64,000 nt of DNA from a virus (IMGVR_UViG_3300042484_000872:48338-112337), one strand, 5' to 3'. Counted from the first letter of the stretch, positions 3,968-61,705 are shown. Numbers and translations: made by a program. The notes: generated from the letters alone by a model not told the origin.

Positions 3968-5200
3968 TTATATTCGGGTTTCGAACTCTGCTATTTTACC
4001 TAGCTTACTGTCATAAACTAGAGCAAGAGCTGCACGTACTGAGTGTACGAAGTTATTATCTAAGTGCCATCTATCAGTTCCTGAAAGACTAGGCATTTGT
4101 TGTATTCTTACACCTTTGACTTCTTTAGCCATATAGTGATGTTTATCTCCTGTGTGTATCTCTCTGTATTTAGCATTACCAAAGAAATGACTATATTCAG
4201 GATGTGTAGCAAACAATAAAGGAAGATCATCTAATTTACAATTACCATGGTGCCATCCAATAAATGTATTACCTAACACTTTAGCTTTGATAACTGAATG
4301 TTCTCTGATAAAATCTACATCCATAGCATCTTGAAAATATACATCTAATGCATGTGCTAAGTAGAAAGATTTAGTTCTATCATGATTACCCTGTACAAGT
4401 ACAACAGTTACATCACTAGCATACTGTCTCAGCATATTGATTGTATCTACAAGAACAGAGAATCCTAATTCATACTCTGAATGGTAATCCATTATAGTAT
4501 CTTGTGGTGTACCCTGTGTAGTTTGATGTTGGTAGTTATCAGTATGGAAGAAATCATTTGATATAGGAAGTACAACAGTGTTTATGTTGTAATTAGCTTT
4601 CACTTTACAGATCAAAGATTGAGCCACATTGAAATATCTTAAGGCTCTTGCTTTTGGATCATTGTCACCATCTACACATCTTTTAGCTAAATGGAAATCA
4701 GATAAAGATATTTCTACGTCTACATAATCTTTATCAGTAGTACGATCTTCTTTAATGATTGATACATTAGTTGGTTTGTAGTTTTCTAAAAACTTAGCAA
4801 AGTCTTCAGGAGAATAATCTTGTGGTTGTTTTCTTTTACTAAAGACTGAGGAAGTAAAACTTCCACTTGGTAACATCTTAGACCAATAATTGGTAATGAC
4901 GTATTTATCTAGGTTTATCTTATGTAGCTTAGCTAACTCAAGATCATCTTTAGGTTCAAATGCACTAGTGACAGTACTTTCTATTGTTCCTTTCTCAACA
5001 TTCACTTTTCTAGATTCTTCCATGAATTTAGTAGCAATTCCTACAAGCACATCATCAACATCATCTTTTTCTCTCAGCTCTTTTAGAAGATCATTCACTT
5101 CAAATTCACTTATTCCTAGTTTTTCTGCGTAGAACTTTTTACTTTTCTTTTGCCTTAATAATTCTTCTAATCTATGTAACAAGCTTTGATTTTCAGACAT
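3968..5200 (-). CDS. calcineurin-like metallophosphoesterase
   Basis: VVLVQGNHD (GNHD motif), GWHHGN and HTGDKHH motifs typical of the metallophosphatase fold. Confidence 0.5.
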   Translation of the reverse strand: MSENQSLLHRLEELLRQKKSKKFYAEKLGISEFEVNDLLKELREKDDVDDVLVGIATKFMEESRKVNVEKGTIESTVTSAFEPKDDLELAKLHKINLDKYVITNYWSKMLPSGSFTSSVFSKRKQPQDYSPEDFAKFLENYKPTNVSIIKEDRTTDKDYVDVEISLSDFHLAKRCVDGDNDPKARALRYFNVAQSLICKVKANYNINTVVLPISNDFFHTDNYQHQTTQGTPQDTIMDYHSEYELGFSVLVDTINMLRQYASDVTVVLVQGNHDRTKSFYLAHALDVYFQDAMDVDFIREHSVIKAKVLGNTFIGWHHGNCKLDDLPLLFATHPEYSHFFGNAKYREIHTGDKHHYMAKEVKGVRIQQMPSLSGTDRWHLDNNFVHSVRAALALVYDSKLGKIAEFETRI

Positions 5201-23523: not shown

Positions 23524-24102
23524 CTATTTATATCTAATATTAAACTTTTTACTTTTATTAACACCTCTACAATTTGATGATATATTACTTTGAGATACAT
23601 TTAAAAACTCTGCAGCTTTTAATGATGATTCAAACTCTTGTATTATATTATTACTATCATCTAACAAAAGTACAATTTTTTGTTTAGTTAAACCTAATTT
23701 TTTATTATGTTCACTACTTCTAATTACAGTTCTTCCTTTTAATGAGTTAGCTATTTTTAATCTAGTTTCTTTTTTAACTTCCCTTCCTAAACAATTTCCT
23801 GCAACTGGAGTAGCATTATACCCACTGCTATATGAGTTATATTTATCTATATAATACTGTTCTTGTAAAAGAATGTTTTCATTACTGCATGTTTCTACTA
23901 TTTCAAAAATAAAACTATCTTCTCCGTATTTATTCCAAGCTCTTTGTAACTTAATTGAATGATGTTTATTCTTTTTAAGATTAGTTATATGACATCTTTT
24001 TCGTTTAGTTAATCCATGAATAGATGATCCTATATATACTTTATCTGTAGATATATTTTTTATCATGTAAATAACTCCTTCATATATCTGACTTAGGCTC
24101 AT
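23524..24102 (-). CDS. GIY-YIG homing endonuclease
   Basis: GVIYMIKN...KVYIGSS (GIY...YIG), conserved R/H/N downstream, C-terminal basic DNA-binding region. Confidence 0.65.
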   Translation of the reverse strand: MSLSQIYEGVIYMIKNISTDKVYIGSSIHGLTKRKRCHITNLKKNKHHSIKLQRAWNKYGEDSFIFEIVETCSNENILLQEQYYIDKYNSYSSGYNATPVAGNCLGREVKKETRLKIANSLKGRTVIRSSEHNKKLGLTKQKIVLLLDDSNNIIQEFESSLKAAEFLNVSQSNISSNCRGVNKSKKFNIRYK

Positions 24103-24442: not shown

Positions 24443-24782
24443 GTACTAGTTTTATATCTAATGTTAAATCTTTTGTAAAATCTATAATGATGATGGGATT
24501 TACCTTCACCTTTCCATTCTCCTTAATGAATATACCAATTCTTTTAAGTTTACTGATGATGTTATTAATAGAAGGAGATGTACTATTATATGTTCTGCAG
24601 AATTCTTCTCTTACATTAGCATATGTAATGTTTCCTTTAATAGCTGTAAAAGATATCAATTGAATCTCTCTTTCTGTTAGATGAAGATTGTTAATAGCAG
24701 ATAGTATACTATAATACTTCTCAGCTAATTGAATGTCTGTAGAAACATCCTTCTTCAGTTTTTGTATAATCATTGGTTTCAT
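24384..24782 (-). CDS. hypothetical protein (first gene of leftward transcription unit)
   Basis: 132-aa ORF abutting the divergent switch region. Confidence 0.45.
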   Translation of the reverse strand: MKPMIIQKLKKDVSTDIQLAEKYYSILSAINNLHLTEREIQLISFTAIKGNITYANVREEFCRTYNSTSPSINNIISKLKRIGIFIKENGKVKVNPIIIIDFTKDLTLDIKLVHEETTINVSEGVDHQKDVN

Positions 24783-25083
24783 AATGTAGTTTTATCTAAT
24801 CATATGACAAAGATATACAATAAACACATACAATGTATACTTTTTTATTTACCAATGCTATATTATGAAGTTTTTCTATATAGCTGTACTAGATAACCTC
24901 GCCCAACCACCACCCCAAAGGTATAATATAATTCTTATATCTACCAAATTTTTTTTAAATTTTTTTTTTCAAAATTTAGAAAGGTGTTATATGTGTGGTT
25001 GTGTAGAGTACTTCCAATCAGCTACCCCACCTATGTTTGGGTGAGCGGGGTGCTCCCCCATTAACAATTAAAAAACAGAAATT
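24783..25083. promoter_or_regulatory. divergent intergenic switch region, probably holding promoters for both arms
   Basis: Every gene to the left is minus-strand and every gene to the right is plus-strand. Contains poly-T/A tracts, a TATGTTTG (TAnnTTTG-like) box at 25032-25039 and a GC-rich hairpin-capable patch ccccacc...gggtgagcggggtgctcccccat. Confidence 0.4.
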
Positions 25084-26021: not shown

Positions 26022-26070
26022 TTATAGGCTCTTCTTAGGGCCTTTTTAAAACTCCTTAATAACAAATAAA

Positions 26071-26382
26071 ATGAACAAACATTTAACAAATGAACAAATA
26101 GATAACAGACTTGGTGCTGTTATGAATGCATTTAAAGAAGAGAATGCTACAAGTGTAATGAATATGAACTCTGTAGCTAGTTTATTAACTTCTGGTACAT
26201 ATAGTATCAATGGTGATGCTGAGATTAATGAGCAAGTAGCTAAATCAATCAAGAGATTGACAAGCTTTGTTAATAGAATATCTGATATAGTGCATAAAGG
26301 CACTGAAGAATGTGATCTTGATTCTCAAATTGATGAGAATCGTAAATTTTGGGAAGAACTTAAATCAATATTAAATCCTTAA
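26071..26382 (+). CDS. hypothetical protein
   Basis: 103-aa ORF; TCCTTAATAAC motif 7 nt upstream of the ATG. Confidence 0.5.
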   Translation: MNKHLTNEQIDNRLGAVMNAFKEENATSVMNMNSVASLLTSGTYSINGDAEINEQVAKSIKRLTSFVNRISDIVHKGTEECDLDSQIDENRKFWEELKSILNP

Positions 26383-26387
26383 TAATT

Positions 26388-26594
26388 ATGAAATCAACAA
26401 AAATTATGTTAGCTTTTATAGCTACGCTTATCGCTACATGGACTCTATTTAGTCTTATTGGATATTTATTATCTGATATGTCATTAAAAGAATGTTACAC
26501 AAATGGTGGAACAATTGGTTGTATGGCTGTATTTGGTTGGATACCAAGTATTATTGTAGGTGCAGATATTAGTGATAAACTTAACAACTATTAA
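26388..26594 (+). CDS. small membrane protein
   Basis: 68 aa, two hydrophobic segments. Confidence 0.45.
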   Translation: MKSTKIMLAFIATLIATWTLFSLIGYLLSDMSLKECYTNGGTIGCMAVFGWIPSIIVGADISDKLNNY

Positions 26595-26596
26595 TA

Positions 26597-26959
26597 ATGG
26601 ATCATCCAATATTTAAAGCTGCTGTATTGATTGGAAGTCAAGAAGAATCTGATATAGCTAAAGATATATGTCTTAAATATTCTCTTCCTGTTTGGGAAGA
26701 GATTGATTTAGGATTTGATTGGGTAGATTATGGTGATGATGATGTTCCTACATATTTATATTATGATAGTGAAAGAGATGAATCTGAAAAATCTCGTGTA
26801 GGTTTTTTTGTTGATGATATGGATAATAAAAAGAATTATAACATTATGTCAATAGAAGAATTTGAAGCATTAGCTAACACTCTAAATCCAGAATACGATA
26901 GTATAGAAGACATATTGTCTAAACTAAAAGAAATAAATAACATCCTTAATAACAAATAA
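26597..26959 (+). CDS. hypothetical acidic protein
   Basis: 120-aa ORF. Confidence 0.5.
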   Translation: MDHPIFKAAVLIGSQEESDIAKDICLKYSLPVWEEIDLGFDWVDYGDDDVPTYLYYDSERDESEKSRVGFFVDDMDNKKNYNIMSIEEFEALANTLNPEYDSIEDILSKLKEINNILNNK

Positions 26960-26960
26960 C

Positions 26961-27101
26961 ATGAAAAAGAAACCTATTACATCAATAGTATCATTGTATA
27001 CTATTACAGCTATTCTATTAGTTATCATCTTCACTATGGAGAGCTGTGCATCAAGATGCAAACAACAAAGAAGATATTGGTCTAATCATAGAGCTGTATA
27101 A
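26961..27101 (+). CDS. 46-aa membrane peptide (MKKKPITSIVSLYTITAILLVIIF...)
   Basis: Hand-translated; below the ORF-track cut-off. TCCTTAATAAC motif 7 nt upstream; abuts neighbours on both sides. Confidence 0.3.
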   Translation: MKKKPITSIVSLYTITAILLVIIFTMESCASRCKQQRRYWSNHRAV

Positions 27102-27103
27102 TT

Positions 27104-27295
27104 ATGAGCACAGAACAAATTGAACAAAGGTTACAGACTATCAAGAATGAAATACATGCATTAGATAGTCTAAGAGATGCACATGATGATACAAACATAC
27201 ATGTGATTGAAGAGCAACAAGACATATTGTTTCACGAAAGACAACAACTAACATTCTTGTTAGAGAGTTGTTTTGATGATCTTATAGGATTATGA
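27104..27295 (+). CDS. hypothetical protein
   Basis: 63-aa helical ORF. Confidence 0.4.
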   Translation: MSTEQIEQRLQTIKNEIHALDSLRDAHDDTNIHVIEEQQDILFHERQQLTFLLESCFDDLIGL

Positions 27296-27453
27296 TAACA
27301 TTATATATTATTACATCATATCTAGTGATGCTAGGTGTGATGATAGAGAGTTACGAGAAATTAGATGATATGAAAGGTTATGCAATAGCATCATACATCT
27401 TTAGTCCAATAGTATTACCAGTTCTTATTGGTATGATGCTAGGAAAGAAATAA
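27292..27453 (+). CDS. 53-aa membrane peptide
   Basis: Hand-translated MITLYIITSYLVMLGVMIE...; ATGA overlap with the previous stop. A further 32-aa hydrophobic ORF follows at 27453-27551. Confidence 0.3.
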   Translation: MITLYIITSYLVMLGVMIESYEKLDDMKGYAIASYIFSPIVLPVLIGMMLGKK

Positions 27454-27565
27454 TGGGAGAGTTTATAGCAAAGGTAGTCATAAGCATAGTCTTGTGGCTA
27501 CTAGTTGCTAGAGTGTTCCTATACTTTGGCAAGAAAATATTTAAAGATTAATCAAATCAAACACA

Positions 27566-27805
27566 ATGACAAAACAAAAATACAACATTGAAGAAGCATT
27601 CCAACAAGTTCAAGAACTAGTAGATGCTCAAGAGAAAGCATTGAGAACAGCTGACACTCTATTACATCTAAAAGATTGTATCATAGAGATATTAGAAGAC
27701 CAAAAGAAAATTAATGAAAAAGAGAATAAGATTCTTAGAATCTGTCTGTATTCATTAGTAGCATTGTATTCAATAATATTTATTGCATCATATTTTGCGA
27801 AGTAG
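27566..27805 (+). CDS. hypothetical protein with C-terminal TM helix
   Basis: 79-aa ORF. Confidence 0.4.
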   Translation: MTKQKYNIEEAFQQVQELVDAQEKALRTADTLLHLKDCIIEILEDQKKINEKENKILRICLYSLVALYSIIFIASYFAK

Positions 27806-27970
27806 AATATCTAGAGGTACATTGGTAGCATCAACAGACAGATTTAGAGCAATCAAAGCTAAAAGGTTGATAGTAGAAGTGATATATAATTTCAGAAATG
27901 GAATTATAAAGGAGAAGACAATAGACATAAGACAAACAATAAACCAGTAATCAATTAATTCCTTAATAAC

Positions 27971-28468
27971 ATGAGCACACAAACATCAGGTGGAATATTC
28001 ACCTTTGACCATGGTCAAAAAAAACTTAACCTTGCAATTGGTGTATCACCAGAATATTTAGAGGATCTTGGTACACAAGTATCAAATCTATTGAAAGATT
28101 TTATTTTTGATGATGATAAAAATCTTAGAGAAGATACATCACCAAGTCAATTAGTAGAAATATGTGCTAATGAGTTTAGTTATTCTCAATTAGTAGTTTT
28201 AGCATCATTCTATCTACAAGATAGAGTAGATGGATTTGCTAAGAAATTAGAGGACAAATTGAAAAATATGAAATCATCAGCTAAAGCTATAAGATTAAAT
28301 AGTGATGATGTTCCAGATAACATCAAAGAGATGCTTGAAAATCTTACAGAAGGACGTAGTGAAGGTGATCCAATTGATGGTGATTCATTACCACAAGAGC
28401 TTAAAGACTTTCTTGATAAATTAGCTGAAGAGCAACAAAGACAAGAAGGAGATGGTGATGATGACTAA
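27971..28468 (+). CDS. hypothetical highly acidic protein
   Basis: 165 aa, ends EGDGDDD. TCCTTAATAAC directly abuts the ATG. Confidence 0.5.
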   Translation: MSTQTSGGIFTFDHGQKKLNLAIGVSPEYLEDLGTQVSNLLKDFIFDDDKNLREDTSPSQLVEICANEFSYSQLVVLASFYLQDRVDGFAKKLEDKLKNMKSSAKAIRLNSDDVPDNIKEMLENLTEGRSEGDPIDGDSLPQELKDFLDKLAEEQQRQEGDGDDD

Positions 28469-28730
28469 TCCAACAAGAAGAAATCTATCTGGTGTGTATA
28501 TATTTGATACTCTTCCAGGTGATAAGAGAAGACAACCTACAGTGTTTGAAGATTGTACACAAGAGAAGCAACAAGAATGGTTAGATAGTCTAACTACAGA
28601 AGCTCTCAAGAATCTTGCTAAACATTTAGGCACAAAACTTAGAGACTTAGGTGATATGTTTGATATCATGAGTGGATCTGAAGAAGATGATGATGATGAT
28701 GATTATCCAATTGACATCATTAATGAATAA
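28452..28730 (+). CDS. hypothetical acidic protein
   Basis: 92 aa, C-terminal SEEDDDDDDYPIDIINE. Confidence 0.45.
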   Translation: MVMMTNPTRRNLSGVYIFDTLPGDKRRQPTVFEDCTQEKQQEWLDSLTTEALKNLAKHLGTKLRDLGDMFDIMSGSEEDDDDDDYPIDIINE

Positions 28731-28736
28731 TTAATA

Positions 28737-28764
28737 AGAGAGCTGTAATGGCTCTCTTTTATAT
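28737..28764 (+). terminator. intrinsic terminator AGAGAGC-tgtaatg-GCTCTCT + TTTTAT
   Basis: 7-bp stem read directly; the track's ATG at 28748 lies inside the loop. Confidence 0.5.
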
Positions 28765-28771
28765 CAAAGCT

Positions 28772-30088
28772 ATGAGTAAATATAGATTTAAGACAGAACA
28801 AGAGTTTAAATATGATGATTTTTGGAATGATGAATATGAATGCCCAGATAACTGGTCTGAAGAAGGTGATATGAATGGTTATATGGGACAAGATGTTCCT
28901 GATAAATTCATTAAACTAATTGAGAAAGGTCATTCATTTACTTATGATAATTGGTTATTCCGAGCAAACAATTGTATCATCAAAGAAATAGAAGTAGTAA
29001 ACGTAGAAGAAGTATTAGAACAAATTAAATTAAATAATTCCTTAATAACAAAAGAAAAAATGAAAGCAACAACAGTAAAGAAATCAGCAAAAGCAAATCC
29101 AGTAGCAGAGAAGTTCGTATTTATGGACAAAACAGTTAACATTCTAAACGTAGGATTCCAAACATGTAAGAATGTTGTATTATATGGTCCAGGAGGACAT
29201 GGTAAATCAGAAATGACACTTGATTTTCTAAAAGCAAAAGGTATTGAACCTTATGTTATTACAATGGGTACAGGTATGACTACAGACAGATTGTTTGGTG
29301 GTCTTGATATACCTATGTTTGAAAAGACAGGTAAAATAGAATATCTTGTAGAGAATTCATTTATGAATCATCCTTTTGTTATATTCGAAGAGATGTTTGA
29401 TGCTCCTGATTTCATCTTAGAACAATTAAAGGATATATTATCAAGTGGTACATTCAGAAATGGCACACAGATATTTCCTATTGAAACTAAGTTCATCATT
29501 TGTTGTACAAATAGAACTCGTGATGAATTCTCAAAGAATATGTCTTTGAAAGCATTGATGGAGAGATTTCCTCTTGAATTGAATGTTATCTGGGATAACT
29601 ATACAGAGATCAGCTACAATAAATTACTAGAGAGTAAGTTTGGTGTAGATAATGTAGATCCAGTGATTCCATATTTGTTACAAGAGTATGCTAAGAATGG
29701 TATTACAATTAGTCCACGTGTTGCTGTAACAGCATATCAAGTGTATGACCAATGTGGACCAGAATCATTAAGCTTTATTGCTGAGTTCTCTAAGAAACCA
29801 TCATTGATAGCTGAAGCTATTAAGAAGTTTGAGGCTACAATTAAGTTTAGAGATTTATCTGCATCTCTTACATTCAGTATTGAAACTCTAACTCATTTAC
29901 CATTGGTATCTAGAGATGATGAGAAGATGTACAAAGATGCTATTGTTGATCTTAACAAGCAATTGACAGACATCAAAGGATTAGCAGTGAGTGATGATAT
30001 TGCACAAATACATTCACAATTAGTAAAAGCTGCTACACAAGCTAAAGAGAAGTTTACTAAGAACCTACAAATTGCTTCATTCATATAA
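28772..30088 (+). CDS. MoxR-like AAA+ ATPase
   Basis: Walker A GPGGHGKS, Walker B-like VIFEEMFDA, sensor-1 CCTNRT. Start moved from 28748 (inside a hairpin loop) to the ATG at 28772 (MSKYRF...). Confidence 0.6.
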   Translation: MSKYRFKTEQEFKYDDFWNDEYECPDNWSEEGDMNGYMGQDVPDKFIKLIEKGHSFTYDNWLFRANNCIIKEIEVVNVEEVLEQIKLNNSLITKEKMKATTVKKSAKANPVAEKFVFMDKTVNILNVGFQTCKNVVLYGPGGHGKSEMTLDFLKAKGIEPYVITMGTGMTTDRLFGGLDIPMFEKTGKIEYLVENSFMNHPFVIFEEMFDAPDFILEQLKDILSSGTFRNGTQIFPIETKFIICCTNRTRDEFSKNMSLKALMERFPLELNVIWDNYTEISYNKLLESKFGVDNVDPVIPYLLQEYAKNGITISPRVAVTAYQVYDQCGPESLSFIAEFSKKPSLIAEAIKKFEATIKFRDLSASLTFSIETLTHLPLVSRDDEKMYKDAIVDLNKQLTDIKGLAVSDDIAQIHSQLVKAATQAKEKFTKNLQIASFI

Positions 30089-31479
30089 TGGCAAGTTTAT
30101 GGGATAATGGGTATGATGATTACTACGGTGATTATTATGCCCCTTCCTATACTCCTAAAAAGAGTAGTGGAGGCTGGAAAAGTAAATATGGTGGTAGTGG
30201 ATGGTCCAAGAGTTCTTGGTCTAATTTCTCATATGTTGTATCATATGAGGATAATGATGAAGATCTATTTGTTAAAGATCCAGTTAACTATTTAACACCA
30301 AGTGCTAAAGACATCAAAGCTAAGGTGAGAGGTGTTAAGAAGCAAGAATCTATTGATTTGATCAAAGAGTTAGCACGTGTGTGTTATTTCAAGATGATTG
30401 ATGAAACAGAATATGTAGCTGATAAGTATAAAGATGTAGATAATTTATCTGATGAAGACAAAGGAGAATATGCAAAGAAGAAACCTTTGCTTGATGCTGT
30501 GTATCAACAATATGTTCCAGGATTTACACCTCTTGAACAAGCTATTGCTATCTATCTGAAGCTTAAAGAATCTCCTACTGGAGAAAGAAATGAAGATGAT
30601 GATGATGAAGAAACAGATACAAGTAAAGCATTTGATTTTGATAGAAGTCTTTATTCTGATCCAAATATCAATGAACAATTAGATCTAAATGAACTAAGCA
30701 AGGATAAGAAGATGGAGATTATGAATCACATATCTCTTGTTGGTAAGTTTGGTAGTGAGTTTAAAGTGGAGAAAGAGATATCTGAGAAGATAGTGGCTAA
30801 TTCTGATCAATATGCAACAATGATTATGAGAGATTATGCTCAAATACATATGATGCCATTATATCAGAAGATGTTTCCTAATTTCAGAACTAAATTCTTA
30901 ACTAAAGACTTAACAGTGAATGTTCCTGTTGATAGAAAAGAACAGATTCAGAAGATTATTATTCTATTAGATTATTCTGGTAGTATGTCAGAAGAACAGA
31001 AACAAATTTGGGTAAATGCTATATTAATAGACAGATTCAAGTATGTTATGAGAGGTGAAGCTGAAGTGTTCTTTAGTTATTTTGTACATGATCCAGAGAA
31101 ATTAGACTTCCAACATATAAAGAATAGAGAAGATGTAATTGCATTTTGGCAAACATTCTCTAATAGTCCTAATGGTGGAGGAACAGAAGTTGGTGATATG
31201 GTTGAATATGTAGCTAATGAAATATCTAGTGGTAAATTATGTAATCTAGATGTTAATCTATTAGAAGAGAAGCCAGAGATATTAATTATCAATGATGGTC
31301 AGGATTCTATAAATAGTGAGAAGTTTCCTTATAAAGTGAATGCCATATCATTAATGCAATTTAGTGATGAGTTGAAAGATCTTTGTCTTGATACAGATGG
31401 TAAACAGATTAAGGTGACAGAAGACTTGGAAGTGTTCAGCTATGCTAAAGGTGTAGGTGAACAACAAATTAAATTATAA
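30088..31479 (+). CDS. von Willebrand factor A (VWA) domain protein
   Basis: MIDAS motif LLDYSGSMSEE; Gly/Tyr/Ser-rich N-terminus. Start codon overlaps the AAA+ gene's stop. Confidence 0.6.
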   Translation: MASLWDNGYDDYYGDYYAPSYTPKKSSGGWKSKYGGSGWSKSSWSNFSYVVSYEDNDEDLFVKDPVNYLTPSAKDIKAKVRGVKKQESIDLIKELARVCYFKMIDETEYVADKYKDVDNLSDEDKGEYAKKKPLLDAVYQQYVPGFTPLEQAIAIYLKLKESPTGERNEDDDDEETDTSKAFDFDRSLYSDPNINEQLDLNELSKDKKMEIMNHISLVGKFGSEFKVEKEISEKIVANSDQYATMIMRDYAQIHMMPLYQKMFPNFRTKFLTKDLTVNVPVDRKEQIQKIIILLDYSGSMSEEQKQIWVNAILIDRFKYVMRGEAEVFFSYFVHDPEKLDFQHIKNREDVIAFWQTFSNSPNGGGTEVGDMVEYVANEISSGKLCNLDVNLLEEKPEILIINDGQDSINSEKFPYKVNAISLMQFSDELKDLCLDTDGKQIKVTEDLEVFSYAKGVGEQQIKL

Positions 31480-31713
31480 TTTGATTAATTATTTGGTTTG
31501 TTACTCCCTGTAGATTATATTTGCAGGGATATTGTATAATCACTGGGGACTATAAACGCCACATAGCAGTTTAAATAGTCAATGTATGTGCTGCGTATCA
31601 TTGAACTTACCTATATTATGCATATTATGAGTTTAGAACTCACTAGAGTGATACAAAAAGAATAGGGAAGCTGAAAACTATATAGAGTAGGTACAAAATT
31701 AAACCAATGAACA

Positions 31714-31896
31714 ATGAAGTATCTAATAAGTATAGTCTTTACGTTCTTATCTGTATTAGCCTTTATGAAACTATTGTTTCTATTGAATAAGGGCAATACT
31801 GTTGCAAATGTTTTTGCTATAGTAGGTATATTCTTATTGGGATATATAATTGCAAGAACAAAGTTATTTACACAATTAAAATCAAAGAAAAAATGA
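31714..31896 (+). CDS. small membrane protein
   Basis: 60 aa, hydrophobic, overlaps the lipoprotein start by 4 nt. Confidence 0.3.
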   Translation: MKYLISIVFTFLSVLAFMKLLFLLNKGNTVANVFAIVGIFLLGYIIARTKLFTQLKSKKK

Positions 31897-32738
31897 AAAA
31901 AGTAGTATTATTAGGAGCATTAGTTGCTATGTTTGCAACATCATGTACAACAGCTGACTCAAGTGAAGTGGCATTAGTGGTAGATCAAATTGGAAATGAT
32001 AAGGGAATTCCAAACATTCAAATGGAATCAGGATTCATATTCTATTTCCCACCAACACAAGATGTATACACCTATCCAACATCTGTACAACATAAAGTGT
32101 GGAGTGCAGACAATCAAGAAGGATCAGAAACAGATGAGCACATTGATGTAACATCATCAGATGGAGCTACATTTGGTCTTGATGTATCTATAAACTTACA
32201 ATTACAAAGAGCTAAGGCATCAGAGTTGTTTATAAAATACAGAGTGGACATGGATGAGTTGATACATACAAGAGTAAGAACTATTGTTAGAAAAGAATTA
32301 TTAGATAATGCTGTTAACTTTGCATCAGATAGTCTTTTACAACATAGAAATATATATGAGGCCAATGTAACTAAGACATTAACATTATCATTAGAGAAAG
32401 AAGGATTCACATTGAATAACATTGCTGTATTAAAGATGGCATTACCATCATCATACAAGAAAGCTATTGAAAGAAAGATTGCTGTGTTACAAGAAACAGC
32501 AACTATCATCTCTCAGACTAAACAAGCTGAACAAACAGCATTGAAGAAAGTGGCATTAGCTAAGGGTAATTACGAAGCAGCACAATATGATGCTAAGACA
32601 AAAGAAATCTTATCACAACCTAAGCTTCTTGAATTATACAGAGCAGAAACAGAAAGAGTATGGGCAAATAAAGGCAGATCTCCATATGGTTCTAATAATG
32701 TATTTGGTTCTGCATCTGGAATTCTTTTAAATAGATAA
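31893..32738 (+). CDS. lipoprotein, SPFH/band-7-like
   Basis: Signal peptide with lipobox MKKVVLLGALVAMFATSC. The rest has prohibitin/HflC-like helical segments (weak, by eye). Confidence 0.5.
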   Translation: MKKVVLLGALVAMFATSCTTADSSEVALVVDQIGNDKGIPNIQMESGFIFYFPPTQDVYTYPTSVQHKVWSADNQEGSETDEHIDVTSSDGATFGLDVSINLQLQRAKASELFIKYRVDMDELIHTRVRTIVRKELLDNAVNFASDSLLQHRNIYEANVTKTLTLSLEKEGFTLNNIAVLKMALPSSYKKAIERKIAVLQETATIISQTKQAEQTALKKVALAKGNYEAAQYDAKTKEILSQPKLLELYRAETERVWANKGRSPYGSNNVFGSASGILLNR

Positions 32739-33048
32739 TTGCACAGTGGTCCTACATCCACACACATTAAACTTGTAGGATTGGTCTCTGATGTTAGGGA
32801 ACACTTGTGAGTTGCAATGATAAAACTCTCAAACAGGCTAAACATTGAACCAGATAGTGCATGAGGCCCATGCTACGAGTAACTATCAAAGATACTATCA
32901 GTAATGGTAGTTGGATGTTATGATGAATGGTGCTCTCTATGACAATTTGCACATAGGAGCACACATTTATCTAATTCAATTTTAAGATTATTAATATAAA
33001 TGCTTGGTACTAATCATTTTTATTTGTACATTTGTAAAAAATATTATT

Positions 33049-33534
33049 ATGTGGAAACAAATAGAAGACTATGATTATGAAATAAATCCTGAAGGAATAG
33101 TAATGAGAATTTCAACTAAAAGAATTAAAAAATCTTTTAAAAGACCTGATGGATACATTGGTATTCAATTGTACAAATCTAAAACAGAGATTAAAAACTT
33201 TCAGTTACATAGATTAATAGCAATTGCATTTATTAATAATCCTGAAAACAAAGACATTATTAACCATAAAGATTCAAATAGAGAAAACAATTCTTTAAAT
33301 AATCTTGAATGGGTAACAAAAAAAGAAAATGACAAACATGCTTATGAATTTGGTAATGCTTCAAACAAAGGTTCTAAAAATGGTTTTTCTGTATTAACAG
33401 AAGAACAAGTATTGAAAATAAGAAAAAAAAGAGCAGAAAATAAACTAACTTATCAAAAATTAGCAGAGTTGTATAATGTTTCTTACGGTTGTATTGCAGG
33501 TATAATACAAAGAACAAATTGGAAACATATTTAA
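33049..33534 (+). CDS. HNH homing endonuclease (HNH_3 / NUMOD4-type)
   Basis: MWKQIEDYDYEINPEGIV... start context, HRLIAIAF, INHKDSNRENNSLNNLEWVTKKEN. Start moved to Met-16 of the track ORF. Confidence 0.6.
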   Translation: MWKQIEDYDYEINPEGIVMRISTKRIKKSFKRPDGYIGIQLYKSKTEIKNFQLHRLIAIAFINNPENKDIINHKDSNRENNSLNNLEWVTKKENDKHAYEFGNASNKGSKNGFSVLTEEQVLKIRKKRAENKLTYQKLAELYNVSYGCIAGIIQRTNWKHI

Positions 33535-34169
33535 AATAATCTAAACCCTGACAGAAACTGTATAGTAATATATAGAATGGATATAGCTGTATGAGATATG
33601 CTATTATGTACCATTGGGAGTTCTCAGCAAGTAGTTAATCAGGTGTGAGTTCAGTAATCCTCCCAATTACACATCGAAAGGAGGTAATTAACTACGTGAC
33701 CCTACTCTTATATCTAACAATCGTAATTGATTTGCAGAAACAATAGTACATAAGAACAGACTATAAGAAAGAGGGTGCTAAACAATATTTAAAGCTCGAG
33801 GCTCAATCATTTGATTTGAGCACGCTACCTCGGACTATGATAAGTGTCCTCACATGAGGAATTTGGGCTCGACTGGAATTGACTGGTTATTATAGATTAT
33901 ACAATTCAGCCAGAGAGATAACTGTAAACTAAGGTGAATTATTTTAAATGGCAAAAACACAAGTCGTGTAGTGGCTCTAGGAGCAAACGCACAAATCGAA
34001 GCTAATATGAACAAAGTATTCTCATTATTAAATGAGGATGTAATCGTTGGTTTAGCAGCCTAAATTACCTCAAGATTTCTCTATTAGATTAAATAGAGTG
34101 GTGGGAACGTTAAGCCTAGCTTGACCCTAAATAAGCTGTATAAAATTGTATTTTTGAAGTAAGCAACAC

Positions 34170-34194
34170 GAGGGTTCGAATCCCTCCGAGTCCA
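34170..34194 (+). other. orphan tRNA 3' fragment (T-arm GAGGG-TTCGAAT-CCCTC + acceptor 3' strand CGAGTCC-A)
   Basis: Canonical T-arm read directly. No complementary 5' acceptor strand (GGACTCG) anywhere upstream. Confidence 0.35.
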
Positions 34195-34215
34195 CTGATT
34201 ACCAGTTAGTTAAAT

Positions 34216-34326
34216 GATTGAGTGGCGGAATTGGTAGACGTTATGTTATGTACAGATACTAAGCAGAAGTGAGATTGCTGTACTAAGCTCACATCCTGAA
34301 TACAGGTTCGAATCCTGTCTCAATCA
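34216..34326 (+). tRNA. tRNA-like gene, class-II-type D-arm, ~20 nt longer than a canonical tRNA; anticodon not assignable by eye
   Basis: 5' GATTGAG pairs perfectly with 3' CTCAATC. D-arm TGGCGGAATTGGTAGACG, T-arm ACAGG-TTCGAAT-CCTGT, discriminator A. The middle 60 nt contains a duplicated ACTAAGC and stems GTACAG/CTGTAC and GTGAG/CTCAC. Confidence 0.4.
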
Positions 34327-34547
34327 CAGCAGTTACTTGACGCAAATAGCACAGTAACAGACATTGGATAGTTTGCACATCACGAATGTTAAGTCCTTTC
34401 CACGCAGAGAAGGAGTTGAGTACTTATAGGGAAGAAATGTTCCTAATCTCAACAATTGACATCTCCCAAGGGAGAAGGTCCTATTAAAGCCTCTATTAAC
34501 ATAGGGGCTTTTCTTATTATGTATTAATCCTTAATAACTAAATAACA

Positions 34548-35330
34548 ATGAAAGAAAAGTTTATACCTTATACAAAGAAAAAGTATTCTATTACATCTGA
34601 TGGATTAGTTTATTCTAACTATAAAAATACTAACATTGGTGGAAAGTTTTATGAAAAGAAACTTATCAGCAAATATCTACAACAAAATTGTGCTGTTCTT
34701 AATTTACAATTTGGTAAATGGTCCAAAACCAATAAATCAACAACTGTTTTTATGAATACATTAATGAAAGATATATTTAAATTAAAAAAACCAGATACAT
34801 TTCATATGTATGATTTAAGACCTAAGAATGGTAATGTGTTCGATAGTTCATTAGATAATCTAGAATGGAGAATTAGATCCACTTCTGATTTCAATTTCTA
34901 TCCTCAACCATATTATGATAAAAAAGGCAATATAACATCTAAACGTTGCTCACATTGTGGAGAGATACATGATATTAATCGATATGTATTACAGAGGCCT
35001 AAGAGACCAGATGAGAATAATACATATAAGAACAAATGTAAATCTTGTAGACATGATCAAGAATGGAAACTTATAAATTCAGATGATAAAAAACTTGCTA
35101 GATATAAAGAACAACAAAAAAGATATACAAATTCTGAAAAAGGAAAAGCTTATCATAGAGAATATGGAATAGTTTGGTCTAAAAAAGATTATGATAGAAT
35201 AGGTGATCATTATATAAGTAATTGCTTAAAAGTAACAAGAAAAGAATTAACACCAGAATTACGAGAAATATTTAAAAAGAAAATAACCTTAAAACGAAAA
35301 TTAGAAAATCATGGCAACAAAGAAAATTAA
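34548..35330 (+). CDS. HNH-like endonuclease with Zn-finger (HNH_3-like LDNLEW motif)
   Basis: EKFIPYTKKKYSITSDGLVYSNY (NUMOD4-like), FHMYDLRPKNGN...LDNLEWRI, CSHCGE...CKSC zinc finger. TCCTTAATAAC 9 nt upstream. Confidence 0.45.
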   Translation: MKEKFIPYTKKKYSITSDGLVYSNYKNTNIGGKFYEKKLISKYLQQNCAVLNLQFGKWSKTNKSTTVFMNTLMKDIFKLKKPDTFHMYDLRPKNGNVFDSSLDNLEWRIRSTSDFNFYPQPYYDKKGNITSKRCSHCGEIHDINRYVLQRPKRPDENNTYKNKCKSCRHDQEWKLINSDDKKLARYKEQQKRYTNSEKGKAYHREYGIVWSKKDYDRIGDHYISNCLKVTRKELTPELREIFKKKITLKRKLENHGNKEN

Positions 35331-35529
35331 AACAATGAATGTTACAGATGTAATCAAAGTAACACAAGAGATCGGTGATGTACTATCAAGTCAATATCAC
35401 ACATCAAAAGATTTAAAAGTGGCTCAAGGAGCTTTATCAGCTTATAAAACTGCAATTGGTGCAGCAAAAGCTCAATTGATTTATAAGAAACTAACTGGTA
35501 CACCAACTAGTATAGAATTCTTTCAATAG
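35311..35529 (+). CDS. hypothetical protein
   Basis: 72-aa ORF. Confidence 0.4.
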   Translation: MATKKIKTMNVTDVIKVTQEIGDVLSSQYHTSKDLKVAQGALSAYKTAIGAAKAQLIYKKLTGTPTSIEFFQ

Positions 35530-35555
35530 ATTATTAATCCTTAATAACAATAGAA

Positions 35556-35702
35556 ATGAAAACAATCACAATGAAACCAACTGAGTTTTATCAGTTTAGA
35601 CAATTAGCATTCGCAATGAGTATAGCGTTTGCATGTACAATAGCACATGGTGTGTATATTGTAGAAGCCAATATAAACCAGCTAGAACAGTTGGGTTATT
35701 AA
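35556..35702 (+). CDS. 48-aa hydrophobic peptide
   Basis: Hand-translated MKTITMKPTEFYQFRQLAFAMSIAFACTIAHGVYIV.... TCCTTAATAAC 7 nt upstream. Confidence 0.3.
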   Translation: MKTITMKPTEFYQFRQLAFAMSIAFACTIAHGVYIVEANINQLEQLGY

Positions 35703-35769
35703 GGAGGGCAAAAGGGCTCTTGTGTAATAGCAGGAGCCTAATTGTTTAATCATTAATAGAAGAAATACT

Positions 35770-37162: not shown

Positions 37163-37459
37163 ATGGAAGCTAAAGATATAATCGGTAAAGAGATAGAATG
37201 TTTTGAGTTTAAAAGTGAAAACTTACTATCATACTCAAATCAACATAAACAATTATGTGGTAAAAAAGCTATTGTTCTAAACATAAATGAGTCTTATCCA
37301 CAATTTACTCTTGTAGAAATCACTTTACCAATTGGTAAAAAAGAGTCAAATCATTATCCTACAGCAGGTATCATTGAGCAATTAGAAGCAAAAGAGCTTG
37401 AGAATTTAACAATAGAAGAAATTCTAAACAACATGAAGATGCTAACGTCAAAAATATAA
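37163..37459 (+). CDS. hypothetical protein (paralog of 37463..37729)
   Basis: Shared ...GKE(I/M)..F(E/K)F...LT(I)E(E/Q)ILNN(M/I)K(M/K)LTS(K/E) C-terminus with the next gene. Confidence 0.5.
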   Translation: MEAKDIIGKEIECFEFKSENLLSYSNQHKQLCGKKAIVLNINESYPQFTLVEITLPIGKKESNHYPTAGIIEQLEAKELENLTIEEILNNMKMLTSKI

Positions 37460-37462
37460 ATC

Positions 37463-37729
37463 ATGGAAGATAAAGATTCACTTATAGGAAAAGAAATGAA
37501 AGGCTTTAAGTTTAGTGGTTATCCAACTTATATACCTCATATGCAACCATATGAAGGTGTTGTTGGAAAAATAACATTTCAAGATCATAATGTAACTCAA
37601 ATAAGATTTCCTAATGGTAGAAGTTATAATTATCCATATCCTGAATCACTTAATCATCTAGTAGTAGAAGAAGAATTAACAATTGAACAAATCCTTAATA
37701 ACATTAAAAAATTAACATCAGAATTATGA
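37463..37729 (+). CDS. hypothetical protein (paralog of 37163..37459)
   Basis: Tandem paralog; see previous entry. Confidence 0.5.
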   Translation: MEDKDSLIGKEMKGFKFSGYPTYIPHMQPYEGVVGKITFQDHNVTQIRFPNGRSYNYPYPESLNHLVVEEELTIEQILNNIKKLTSEL

Positions 37730-44488: not shown

Positions 44489-44526
44489 ACAATTAAAATC
44501 AATTAAATCAATTAAAATCAATTAAA
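44489..44526. repeat. 4x tandem CAATTAAA(A)T array ending at the ATG of the ParB-like gene
   Basis: caattaaaat caattaaat caattaaaat caattaaac ATG read directly. Confidence 0.7.
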
Positions 44527-45340: not shown

Positions 45341-46153
45341 ATGTTATATCTTTGTCATATGAAAATAGATATAGCCCTTAGAAAAGTGACTGGTATATAT
45401 AAAATTACCAACACTATAAACAATAAATCATATGTAGGAAGTTCTGTTGATGTATATCAAAGAGGATGTATGTATAAGCACTTAATCAAAAGAAAGAAGT
45501 TACATAACAAACATTTACAGTCAGCTGTAGAGAAGTATGGATATGATAATTTTACATTTGAAGTCTTAGATAAGTGTGAAGAAGGTACATCTGTTTTTGA
45601 TTTGCATCAATTAGAACAATCTTACATAAACAAAATTAATCCTGAGTACAATAAAAGAACTGTTGTAGACACAAATCATTTACTTTCACATTCTCAAGAA
45701 ACTAAAGATAAAATATCTAATAGTTTGAAAGAATCTTTTAAGAATGGTAGTAAAGTTATCAATCGTATACAAGAACATAATATAAAAGTTAGTCTATTTG
45801 ATCTATCTGGAAATCATATTCAAGATTTTCCAGGATTAGCTCATTGTGCTGATTTTGTAGGAGTGAAGTATCAGAGCGTAACTTTTGCTATAAACAGTGA
45901 AAGAAGAAGAGTTAAGAATTACATAGTGCTACGTACAGAGGAATCTAATTTGGTAAAAGATTTTCTAAACATACCTAAATTAAATTATGCTAAAAAAGTT
46001 ACAGTTCTAGATATAATTACAAATGAGACATTACAATTTATTAATTGTAAACTGTGTGCAGAATTTATAAATTGTAAACCAACAACTGTAAAAAAATGTT
46101 ATGAGAATGGTAAAATTTGGAAAAACAAATACAAAATAATAAACTATGAGTAA
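45341..46153 (+). CDS. GIY-YIG homing endonuclease
   Basis: GIYKITNTINNKSYVGSS...R...KHLQSAVEKYG...FEVL...E. Alternative start at 45359. Inserted between the helicase fragment and the intact helicase gene. Confidence 0.65.
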   Translation: MLYLCHMKIDIALRKVTGIYKITNTINNKSYVGSSVDVYQRGCMYKHLIKRKKLHNKHLQSAVEKYGYDNFTFEVLDKCEEGTSVFDLHQLEQSYINKINPEYNKRTVVDTNHLLSHSQETKDKISNSLKESFKNGSKVINRIQEHNIKVSLFDLSGNHIQDFPGLAHCADFVGVKYQSVTFAINSERRRVKNYIVLRTEESNLVKDFLNIPKLNYAKKVTVLDIITNETLQFINCKLCAEFINCKPTTVKKCYENGKIWKNKYKIINYE

Positions 46154-61660: not shown

Positions 61661-61705
61661 AAACACAAAAATTAACTATCTTTAAACAATTAAAACAATT
61701 AAATA

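Follow-up and report, generated by a model that had tools for sequence, protein, structure and literature searches.

A conserved 11-mer at the early gene starts of an uncultured crAss-like phage lineage and its predicted role as a promoter for a phage-encoded RNA polymerase

Why does the same string of 11 nucleotides (nt), TCCTTAATAAC, stand repeatedly and directly ahead of start codons in one part of a phage genome? The question is raised by a 64,000-nt stretch (IMGVR_UViG_3300042484_000872:48338-112337, hereafter the window) taken from a 112,245-bp Joint Genome Institute (JGI) contig of a crAss-like phage. A first-pass annotation of this DNA had listed six plus-strand copies, at 26053, 26943, 27960, 29039, 34528 and 35538, lying 7, 7, 0, 10, 9 and 7 nt ahead of an ATG, and all of these coordinates and distances are correct. 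The inventory itself was incomplete, as it missed an exact plus-strand copy at 37692, an exact minus-strand copy at 35695 and a one-mismatch plus-strand copy at 26376; the remark that no copy follows 36 kilobases (kb) was in consequence slightly wrong. A degenerate copy proposed ahead of 35770 (TCATTAATAG) departs from the motif at three bases, is not maintained there in relatives and is probably due to chance.

The window contains eight exact copies, seven on the plus and one on the minus strand, where 0.05 are expected, and none of 100 shuffled sequences reaches eight, which makes the case for repetition beyond chance even stronger than first proposed. All copies lie within 26-38 kb. Copies with two mismatches occur at the chance level (37 found, 36.7 expected), and the signal is therefore a sharp 10-11-mer. 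In order along the window, the plus-strand copies, including the one-mismatch copy, end 7, 1, 7, 0, 10, 9, 7 and 23 nt before a gene ATG; for a random plus-strand position between 26 and 38 kb, the ATG of an open reading frame (ORF) follows within 10 nt in 8.5% of cases and within 23 nt in 17%. The individual copies are as follows.

26053-26063, plus strand: exact copy (TCCTTAATAAC), 7 nt to the ATG at 26071; a hairpin and T-run lie just upstream (about 26025-26046)
26376-26386, plus strand: one-mismatch variant TCCTTAATAAT, 1 nt to the ATG at 26388; the first TAA of the variant serves as stop codon for gene 26071-26382
26943-26953, plus strand: copy within the last codons (ILNN) of gene 26597-26959, 7 nt to the ATG at 26961
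27960-27970, plus strand: copy abutting the ATG at 27971 (spacing 0); the same gene family in relatives has a spacing of 0, 1 or 7
29039-29049, plus strand: copy inside the ORF of a MoxR-type ATPase of 446 amino acids (aa), read there as S-L-I-T, 10 nt to an in-frame ATG at 29060
34528-34538, plus strand: copy 9 nt from the ATG at 34548
35538-35548, plus strand: copy 7 nt from the ATG at 35556 of a small gene
35695-35705, minus strand: copy, the exact reverse complement on the plus strand
37692-37702, plus strand: copy within the last codons (ILNN) of gene 37463-37729, 23 nt to the ATG at 37726, a spacing kept in four relatives

The last copy lies in the second of two adjacent paralogues, 37163-37459 and 37463-37729, which share the C-terminal sequence ...E(E/Q)ILNN(M/I)K(M/K)LTS.... 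Only the second uses the motif codons for ILNN (ATC CTT AAT AAC), and the pair illustrates how a motif copy can arise within coding sequence.

Is the signal particular to this one genome? Loci of relatives are given L-numbers here, the first 30 (L001-L030) being the IMG/VR loci from a search with the ATPase. All 30 of these, whose ATPases are 59-97% identical to that of the window, carry the exact 11-mer in one to six copies each, and a metagenome scan added 74 further loci, mostly freshwater and some marine, many of which carry the motif as well. Across the clade, 170 plus-strand instances head 37 downstream gene families, and in 158 of the 170 the motif ends 0-13 nt ahead of the ATG. The distances from motif end to ATG (n = 170) are distributed as follows.

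0 nt, 24 instances; 1 nt, 22; 2 nt, 2; 3-5 nt, none
6 nt, 3 instances; 7 nt, 49; 8 nt, 18; 9 nt, 16
10 nt, 12 instances; 11 nt, 5; 13 nt, 7; 23-28 nt, 12

The distribution is bimodal, with groups at 0-2 and 6-13 nt separated by an empty 3-5 nt zone, and a single gene family can show a spacing of 0 or 1 in some phages and 7 in others. Within the motif, positions 2-7, 9 and 10 hardly ever change, positions 1 and 8 show slight variation and position 11 is the softest, with C, T or A; the variants at position 8 trace to I-to-K or I-to-T substitutions in the internal ATPase copy. The base after the motif is A in about 70% of copies, and the flanks of plus-strand copies are A/T-rich, with 12 upstream nt that are almost free of G even within coding sequence. 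The 20 kb flanking the window contain no copy, and in 1.0 Mb of structural and polymerase loci of relatives the motif occurs at chance level (six matches, both strands). In the literature, the string turns up only in unrelated papers, and the motif itself is undescribed. It is a genuine signal of early gene starts, highly conserved and specific to this clade of uncultured crAss-like phages.

The window has a G+C content of about 31% and a strand switch near 24.8 kb. The leftward genes include those for the large terminase, portal and major capsid protein, and farther left lie proteins with Pfam matches to CrAss_Ring_1, CrAss_Ring_2 and crAss_MUZ, which identify a crAss-like phage. The rightward block, from 24.8 kb to about 68 kb, contains small genes of no known function, the MoxR AAA+ ATPase, a Band 7 protein, HNH genes, a transfer-messenger RNA (tmRNA), DNA polymerase, rIIA/rIIB and RecA. 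Among the proteins encoded between about 24.1 and 43.3 kb, the domains recognised by a Pfam scan were limited to MoxR AAA+, Band 7, HNH and HU-like ones; most of the remaining proteins belong to no known family. The closest terminases are those of Leptolyngbya phage Lbo-JY46 (40% identity), Cellulophaga phages phi4:1 and phi17:2 (31%) and gut crAss-like phages (about 26%). Close cultured relatives did not emerge, as megablast returned only two matches of 33-50 nt, and a tblastn search of a phage collection with the ATPase returned none.

The lineage also carries a candidate enzyme. In relatives, a series of very large genes follows beyond the window's left end, and the last of them is the following.

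L188:6842-19219, relative IMGVR_UViG_3300042862_000163: ORF of 4,125 aa with DFDID at residue 3222

L188 shares a contig with the motif-bearing locus L026, so that the giant polymerase ORF is known from a relative within the motif clade, not from the window's own genome. Its N-terminal part matches annotated RNA polymerase subunits of crAss001-like phages (tblastn, partial match); Pfam and PHROGs gave no match to the ORF, and the identification comes from tblastn and DFDID only. The virion polymerase of phage phi14:2 has the catalytic motif DFDID and transcribes the early genes of that phage (bioRxiv 10.1101/2020.03.07.982082). At 4,125 aa the ORF is about twice as long as the phi14:2 enzyme (2,180 aa). 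ORFs of 846 and 1,058 aa precede it on the L188 contig, and ORFs of 890 and 1,714 aa lie farther upstream (L044).

What, then, reads the signal? The answer ranked first, which we hold tentatively and at slightly less than an even chance, is that TCCTTAATAA(C) is an early promoter, specific to this clade, for a giant two-barrel RNA polymerase of the phage itself. This polymerase, which crAss-like phages deliver from the virion, would read the motif as a short promoter and would start transcription at or just beyond its 3′ edge; genes with a spacing of 0-2 nt would then yield leaderless mRNAs, and those with a spacing of 6-13 nt very short A-rich leaders. Such expression would be workable because the genes of the window lack an upstream Shine-Dalgarno sequence, as expected for a Bacteroidota host. 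Three points are inferred from the observations below: that the motif works at the DNA level, that this enzyme reads it and that transcripts begin where proposed. The motif is conserved independently of reading frame and is found only where the early block begins. The empty 3-5 nt zone, together with the switching of families between 0/1 and 7, fits a start site at a fixed position. Leaders are commonly short in this phage, in which Bacteroidota-type TAnnTTTG boxes (for example at 33027, 39799 and 56153) stand 6-29 nt ahead of a few ATGs. Finally, an enzyme is available, and phage P23-45 offers a precedent.

The comparison with virion-polymerase promoters extends to the AT-rich pre-early motif of P23-45 gp96, which is likewise short, conserved, A/T-rich, oriented with the genes and placed upstream of those first expressed, in a phage that carries its own two-barrel polymerase. 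The early promoters of N4 and phiKZ are further examples of the class. The present motif differs from these in ending only 0-13 nt before the ATG, which would imply leaderless or very short-leader transcripts, in having an exact inverted copy within a structured RNA, and in being known from sequence alone.

The junctions at which several copies stand also bear on the promoter reading. At 26053, at 34528 and in most contexts of the small gene at 35556, the order is terminator, motif and ATG, with no space for another promoter. Two features in this region are as follows.

34486-34511, plus strand: terminator-like hairpin closing the tmRNA and transfer RNA (tRNA) cluster, 16 nt ahead of the next motif copy
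34539-35548, plus strand: two-gene cassette of 1,010 bp with direct motif copies at both bounds

The window, L005 and L012 have the cassette; L001 and L002 lack it, and there the terminator of the tmRNA/tRNA cluster and the motif join the small gene directly. Because the same 11-mer heads many small early genes, the motif would serve as a recombination point for cassette swaps between related phages. In a sister clade, the order is tRNA, terminator, a variant of the motif, CCCTTTAAT, in the context (A)ACCCTTTAAT(A), and the ATG of the ATPase. A similar arrangement is reportedly found in the mobile regulatory cassettes of T4-type phages called PeSL, said to have been described by Arbiol and colleagues in 2010, in which an early promoter and a stem-loop flank small ORFs. 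Both systems place small early ORFs between repeated regulatory sequences, often beside a hairpin, and gene content is shuffled among relatives there; in the present phages, however, the repeat has a sequence unrelated to theirs, does not belong to the sigma-70 promoter type and has stem-loops at only a minority of copies.

Five contigs begin at or just before the motif, four of them (L119, L124, L125 and L172) at one gene. These four are independent metagenome contigs that break no more than 24 nt from the motif ahead of a gene beginning MKIEQIEQR.... Contig ends were considered as a proxy for transcript ends and rejected, as the breaks fit strain-variable cassette junctions, that is, co-occurring strains with different cassettes upstream of the motif at this gene.

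Several observations weigh against a promoter. In the window and L001-L030, 141 of 142 plus-strand copies of TCCTTAATAA[C/T] have an ORF-opening ATG within 23 nt, a near-absolute coupling that is tighter than a promoter needs. The general association with terminators is weak, as a terminator lies within 100 nt upstream of 23% of motif sites and of 13% of other ORF starts, and many copies sit in operon-like arrays or within upstream coding sequence. The motif never stands ahead of tmRNA or tRNA genes. In the sister clade, copies are sometimes tandem, 9 nt apart and abutting the ATG, which is odd for promoters, and in more distant relatives the ATPase follows a terminator with no recognisable motif. 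The minus-strand copy has no ORF downstream and its flanks are C-rich, not A/T-rich; its only variants are A-to-G changes, all of which keep RNA pairing, and one of them corresponds to a T-to-C change at motif position 4 that is unseen among the tabulated one-mismatch plus-strand copies of the window and L001-L030. CrAss-like early promoters are treated in the literature searched by no study besides that of phi14:2, the only crAss-like phage so studied, for whose early transcripts no common upstream motif was found (bioRxiv 10.1101/2020.03.07.982082); phi14:2 has neither the motif nor a comparable repeat.

Three other explanations were tried and rejected. A host Bacteroidota sigma-A promoter (-33 TTTG / -7 TAnnTTTG) does not apply, as the motif contains no TAnnTTTG and such boxes have ATGs of their own elsewhere. 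Nor is the motif a Shine-Dalgarno site: its UCCUU has the same sense as the anti-Shine-Dalgarno sequence, not its complement, and a GGAGG-like string occurs only on the strand opposite the motif, at the 3′ end of the small gene. A stop-start junction module was set aside since the motif provides the upstream stop codon in just 14 of 169 cases.

The strongest alternative arises from the minus-strand copy, which lies at the end of the small gene.

35556-35702, plus strand: conserved 48-aa ORF, whose transcript has covariation-supported hairpins
35714-35739, plus strand: terminator-like hairpin after the small gene

Across 35695-35705 the plus-strand RNA reads GUUAUUAAGGA (GTTATTAAGGA) over the codons G-Y-stop of the 48-aa gene; GGAGGG follows, and the terminator stem comes 8 nt onward. 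On this basis the motif may instead be an RNA-level operator, in which the transcribed motif in a 5′ leader would be paired by GUUAUUAAGGA at the 3′ end of a small RNA from gene 35556-35702. This is a serious possibility, less probable than not and ranked behind the promoter. Pairing would block the ribosome-binding region of about eight early mRNAs and the internal ATPase start in a RegA-like early shut-off, and pairing in cis would close the small RNA into a panhandle.

Conservation of the complement speaks for this operator. Wherever the motif clade was sampled, 44 of 45 unique homologues of the small gene keep it, 35 exactly and nine with wobble changes (five TAA to TAG, four GGA to GGG). 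The exception, the distant L103, has the small gene and lacks motif, complement and terminator together. The GGT and TAT codons of the complement are invariant in 44 of 44 homologues, whereas other conserved codons vary synonymously. All variation in motif and complement, including C/U at motif position 11, preserves pairing through G-U wobble, and the complement itself varies only from A to G. The wobble bias among variants of the plus-strand copies was also considered and is uninformative, as positions 11, 8 and 1 vary. L011 has the complement but no motif in cis, an indication that the complement acts in trans.

The transcript is a conserved structured RNA, possibly with a dual function. 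Three hairpins within it are supported by compensatory changes that fall at synonymous sites; 97.8% of the cells in the alignment are paired, with far lower values in slid controls, and 47 double-change cells were counted against 12.4 ± 2.8 in shuffles (0 of 500). A hairpin precedes the complement and the terminator follows it, and with the 5′ motif left out most of the complement is predicted to be unpaired; the duplex of motif and complement is complementary at 11 of 11 positions, with a predicted energy of -11.8 kcal/mol. The structured RNA (35556-35745) matches no Rfam family. The tie of the motif to ATGs, and its absence ahead of RNA genes, would also follow from an RNA-level role.

Against the operator, the helix between motif and complement shows one-sided wobble changes, few of them independent events, and no true compensatory double change, and the coding of G-Y-stop may explain part of the conservation. 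Perfect 10-11-nt targets at 37 gene families are unlike known small-RNA regulons, copies directly after strong terminators would be transcribed by read-through only, and the empty 3-5 nt zone is not predicted. Furthermore, no small RNA matching CCCTTTAAT turned up in the 20-kb loci examined from the sister clade; a conserved minus-strand CCCTTTAA was tried as the complement of this variant and proved to be the terminator A-tract plus stem.

Known RNA-level systems are only partly similar. The RegA sites of phage T4 are degenerate, AU-rich and bound by protein, and RegB cuts GGAG. As with RegA and RegB, the present signal marks a class of early genes at their translation-initiation regions, and joint shut-off would be possible; unlike RegA operators, it is an exact 10-11-mer and its candidate reader is an RNA. 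The first-pass annotation had likened the motif to RegA-type control, and while its location is like that of RegA operators, no RegA-like protein was found among the proteins scanned from about 24.1 to 43.3 kb. Bacterial small RNAs derived from mRNA 3′ ends, such as the trans-acting CpxQ and DapZ, offer a second likeness, with a single-stranded seed at or after a stop codon, directly upstream of an intrinsic terminator, and targets at start-codon regions. The candidate RNA differs from them in its 11-nt perfect match to all targets, in being encoded by a phage in a Bacteroidota-type system and in having a target of its own at its 5′ end.

Should the operator prove true, which is less likely than not, the early genes would form an RNA-pairing regulon, in which a structured RNA of about 190 nt encoding a 48-aa peptide carries an 11-nt seed over its stop codon. 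Such a regulon would switch early-gene translation jointly, including the internal ATPase start, in a host lineage without Shine-Dalgarno pairing. In a variant of this proposal, the helix of motif and complement might mimic the promoter and titrate the virion polymerase, by analogy with 6S RNA and the bacterial enzyme.

What places the promoter ahead of the RNA operator? The first-pass annotation had suggested a promoter or a translational operator; both ideas survive testing, and the sequence evidence alone, on which the two readings are about even, cannot separate them. In phage systems, motifs of this kind have usually turned out to be promoters, and it is this general knowledge that puts the promoter first.

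A hybrid of the two is improbable. Here the A/T-rich upstream stretch would be the promoter and the 11-mer the initially transcribed sequence, so that early mRNAs would share the 5′ end UCCUUAAUAAC, 11-24 nt before the AUG, which a small RNA or a protein would recognise to affect translation or stability. The hybrid reconciles the placement after terminators and the restriction to one gene class with the ATG coupling and the conserved complement, and it draws on the near absence of G in the A/T-rich 12 nt upstream of plus-strand copies, even in coding sequence. However, what lies upstream of the 11-mer is a composition only, with no conserved bases, and the hybrid has more moving parts.

The small share of probability left after these three readings is divided among a DNA site, an absence of function and mechanisms not listed here. 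A DNA site, for a phage repressor or activator or for site-specific recombination in cassette exchange, is slightly less probable still than the hybrid. It would account for the cassettes with motif copies at their bounds and for the inverted pair of motifs 157 nt apart around the small gene, and an HU/IHF-like protein is encoded nearby. Yet the motif is strictly co-oriented with genes, one conserved inverted copy excepted, a DNA-binding site needs no fixed spacing to an ATG, and Pfam found no recombinase or sequence-specific regulator among the early proteins scanned. An absence of function, with the copies as relics of duplicated intergenic segments or products of an AT-rich genome in which other A/T-rich strings also recur ahead of ATGs, is effectively refuted: chance and composition fail on the expected count and on start proximity relative to random positions, and the exact motif persists where flanks and downstream genes differ, in relatives down to 59% ATPase identity, and at synonymous sites within coding sequence.

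The choice between promoter and RNA operator matters beyond this lineage. CrAss-like phages are among the most abundant known viruses, and their early genes are read by a giant polymerase injected from the virion. With 10-11 invariant bases, dozens of natural contexts, the variant CCCTTTAAT and a DFDID polymerase, the motif is a testable candidate for what that enzyme recognises. If the promoter is true, the specificity of this polymerase family would be opened to biochemistry, and near-leaderless expression would be a design principle in phages of hosts that do not use Shine-Dalgarno sequences; if the small RNA is the reader, the phage would encode an RNA regulon for early-gene shut-off. Under either reading, the motif is a practical marker for early gene starts, the internal ATPase isoform and cassette boundaries.

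The internal ATPase isoform follows from the copy at 29039, which lies within two overlapping features.

28748-30088, plus strand: full-length ORF of 446 aa, in which an upstream N-domain gene is fused through the motif to the AAA+ ATPase; the frame is kept in 27 relatives
29060-30088, plus strand: predicted short ATPase isoform (MKATTVKK...), orthologue of separate ATPase genes in L089, L085 and distant relatives

The linker of this in-frame fusion has the form ...NSL(I/K/T)TK...M in 27 relatives, and its Met always stands 6-9 codons past the motif although linker length and sequence vary. L089 encodes the N-terminal domain in a gene of its own (162 aa), which ends ...QILNN-stop; here the motif is in another frame and followed by TAG, and a 339-aa ATPase gene begins 8 nt past the motif. 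L085 also has a separate ATPase gene, 7 nt behind the exact motif, and in more distant relatives only the ATPase is present, with its start at the corresponding residue. Because relatives carry two separate genes at this locus, the ATG at 29060 is the ancestral ATPase start. An internal start here had been proposed in the first-pass annotation, and with the Met kept in 27 of 27 relatives and a separate gene behind the motif in L089 and L085, the short isoform beginning MKATTVKK is now a well-founded prediction. Separately, the ATPase match is broken or split at residue 149/150 in three loci (L027 and L029 start at 150, L030 ends at 149), which suggests an insertion (intron or homing-endonuclease gene) or a split gene.

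The small gene adjoins the tmRNA/tRNA cluster, which has unusual features of its own. The phage tmRNA at 33865-34197 has an unusual long tag, ANAQIEANMNKVFSLLNEDVIVGLAA, and a 111-nt tRNA-like gene at 34216-34326 is recognised by Rfam and not by ARAGORN. Beside the tmRNA and tRNA, the G+C-richer non-coding stretches 33540-33860 and 34330-34485 resemble further structured RNAs. A 50-nt segment inside the tmRNA gene (33906-33955) is 92% identical to phi14:2 positions 4070-4118, between g004 and g006. In phi14:2, highly transcribed non-coding regions lie at the g004-g005 and g005-g006 junctions (bioRxiv 10.1101/2020.03.07.982082).

Two other strings recur near start codons in the window. The first, (A)ACAATTAAA, often followed by AGAAATT-ATG, occurs at 25065, 31873, 41951, 42232, 44490-44526, 51930, 54557, 58139 and 61687-61703. 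Fourteen of its 18 plus-strand copies lie 1-30 nt ahead of gene ATGs, and four tandem copies with a 9-10-nt period precede gene 44528. Relatives contain 104 plus-strand copies, 56 of them near an ATG, and 32 minus-strand copies, four of them near one. This string may be the signal of a later gene class. The second, AACTACAT(T)ATG, opens four leftward genes (minus-strand starts 24782, 22665, 17280 and 14091); at 24782 it lies downstream of a TATCTTTG box and would thus fall in the leader. As a conserved late-gene string it was rejected, since it is not conserved in the structural loci of relatives.

Homing-endonuclease-like genes are found at 33049-33534 (HNH by Pfam) and, with N-termini that resemble GIY-YIG by eye, at 23524-24102 (minus strand) and 45341-46153. 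Gene 33049 carries a host-type promoter box, and another HNH gene lies among cargo genes left of the window (L031:17715-18236). Lastly, Rfam reports a DUF805b RNA at 31661-31693, with a score of 36.7 bits that is barely above the gathering score; the match is placed between the terminator after gene 30088-31479 and a small membrane-protein gene at 31714.

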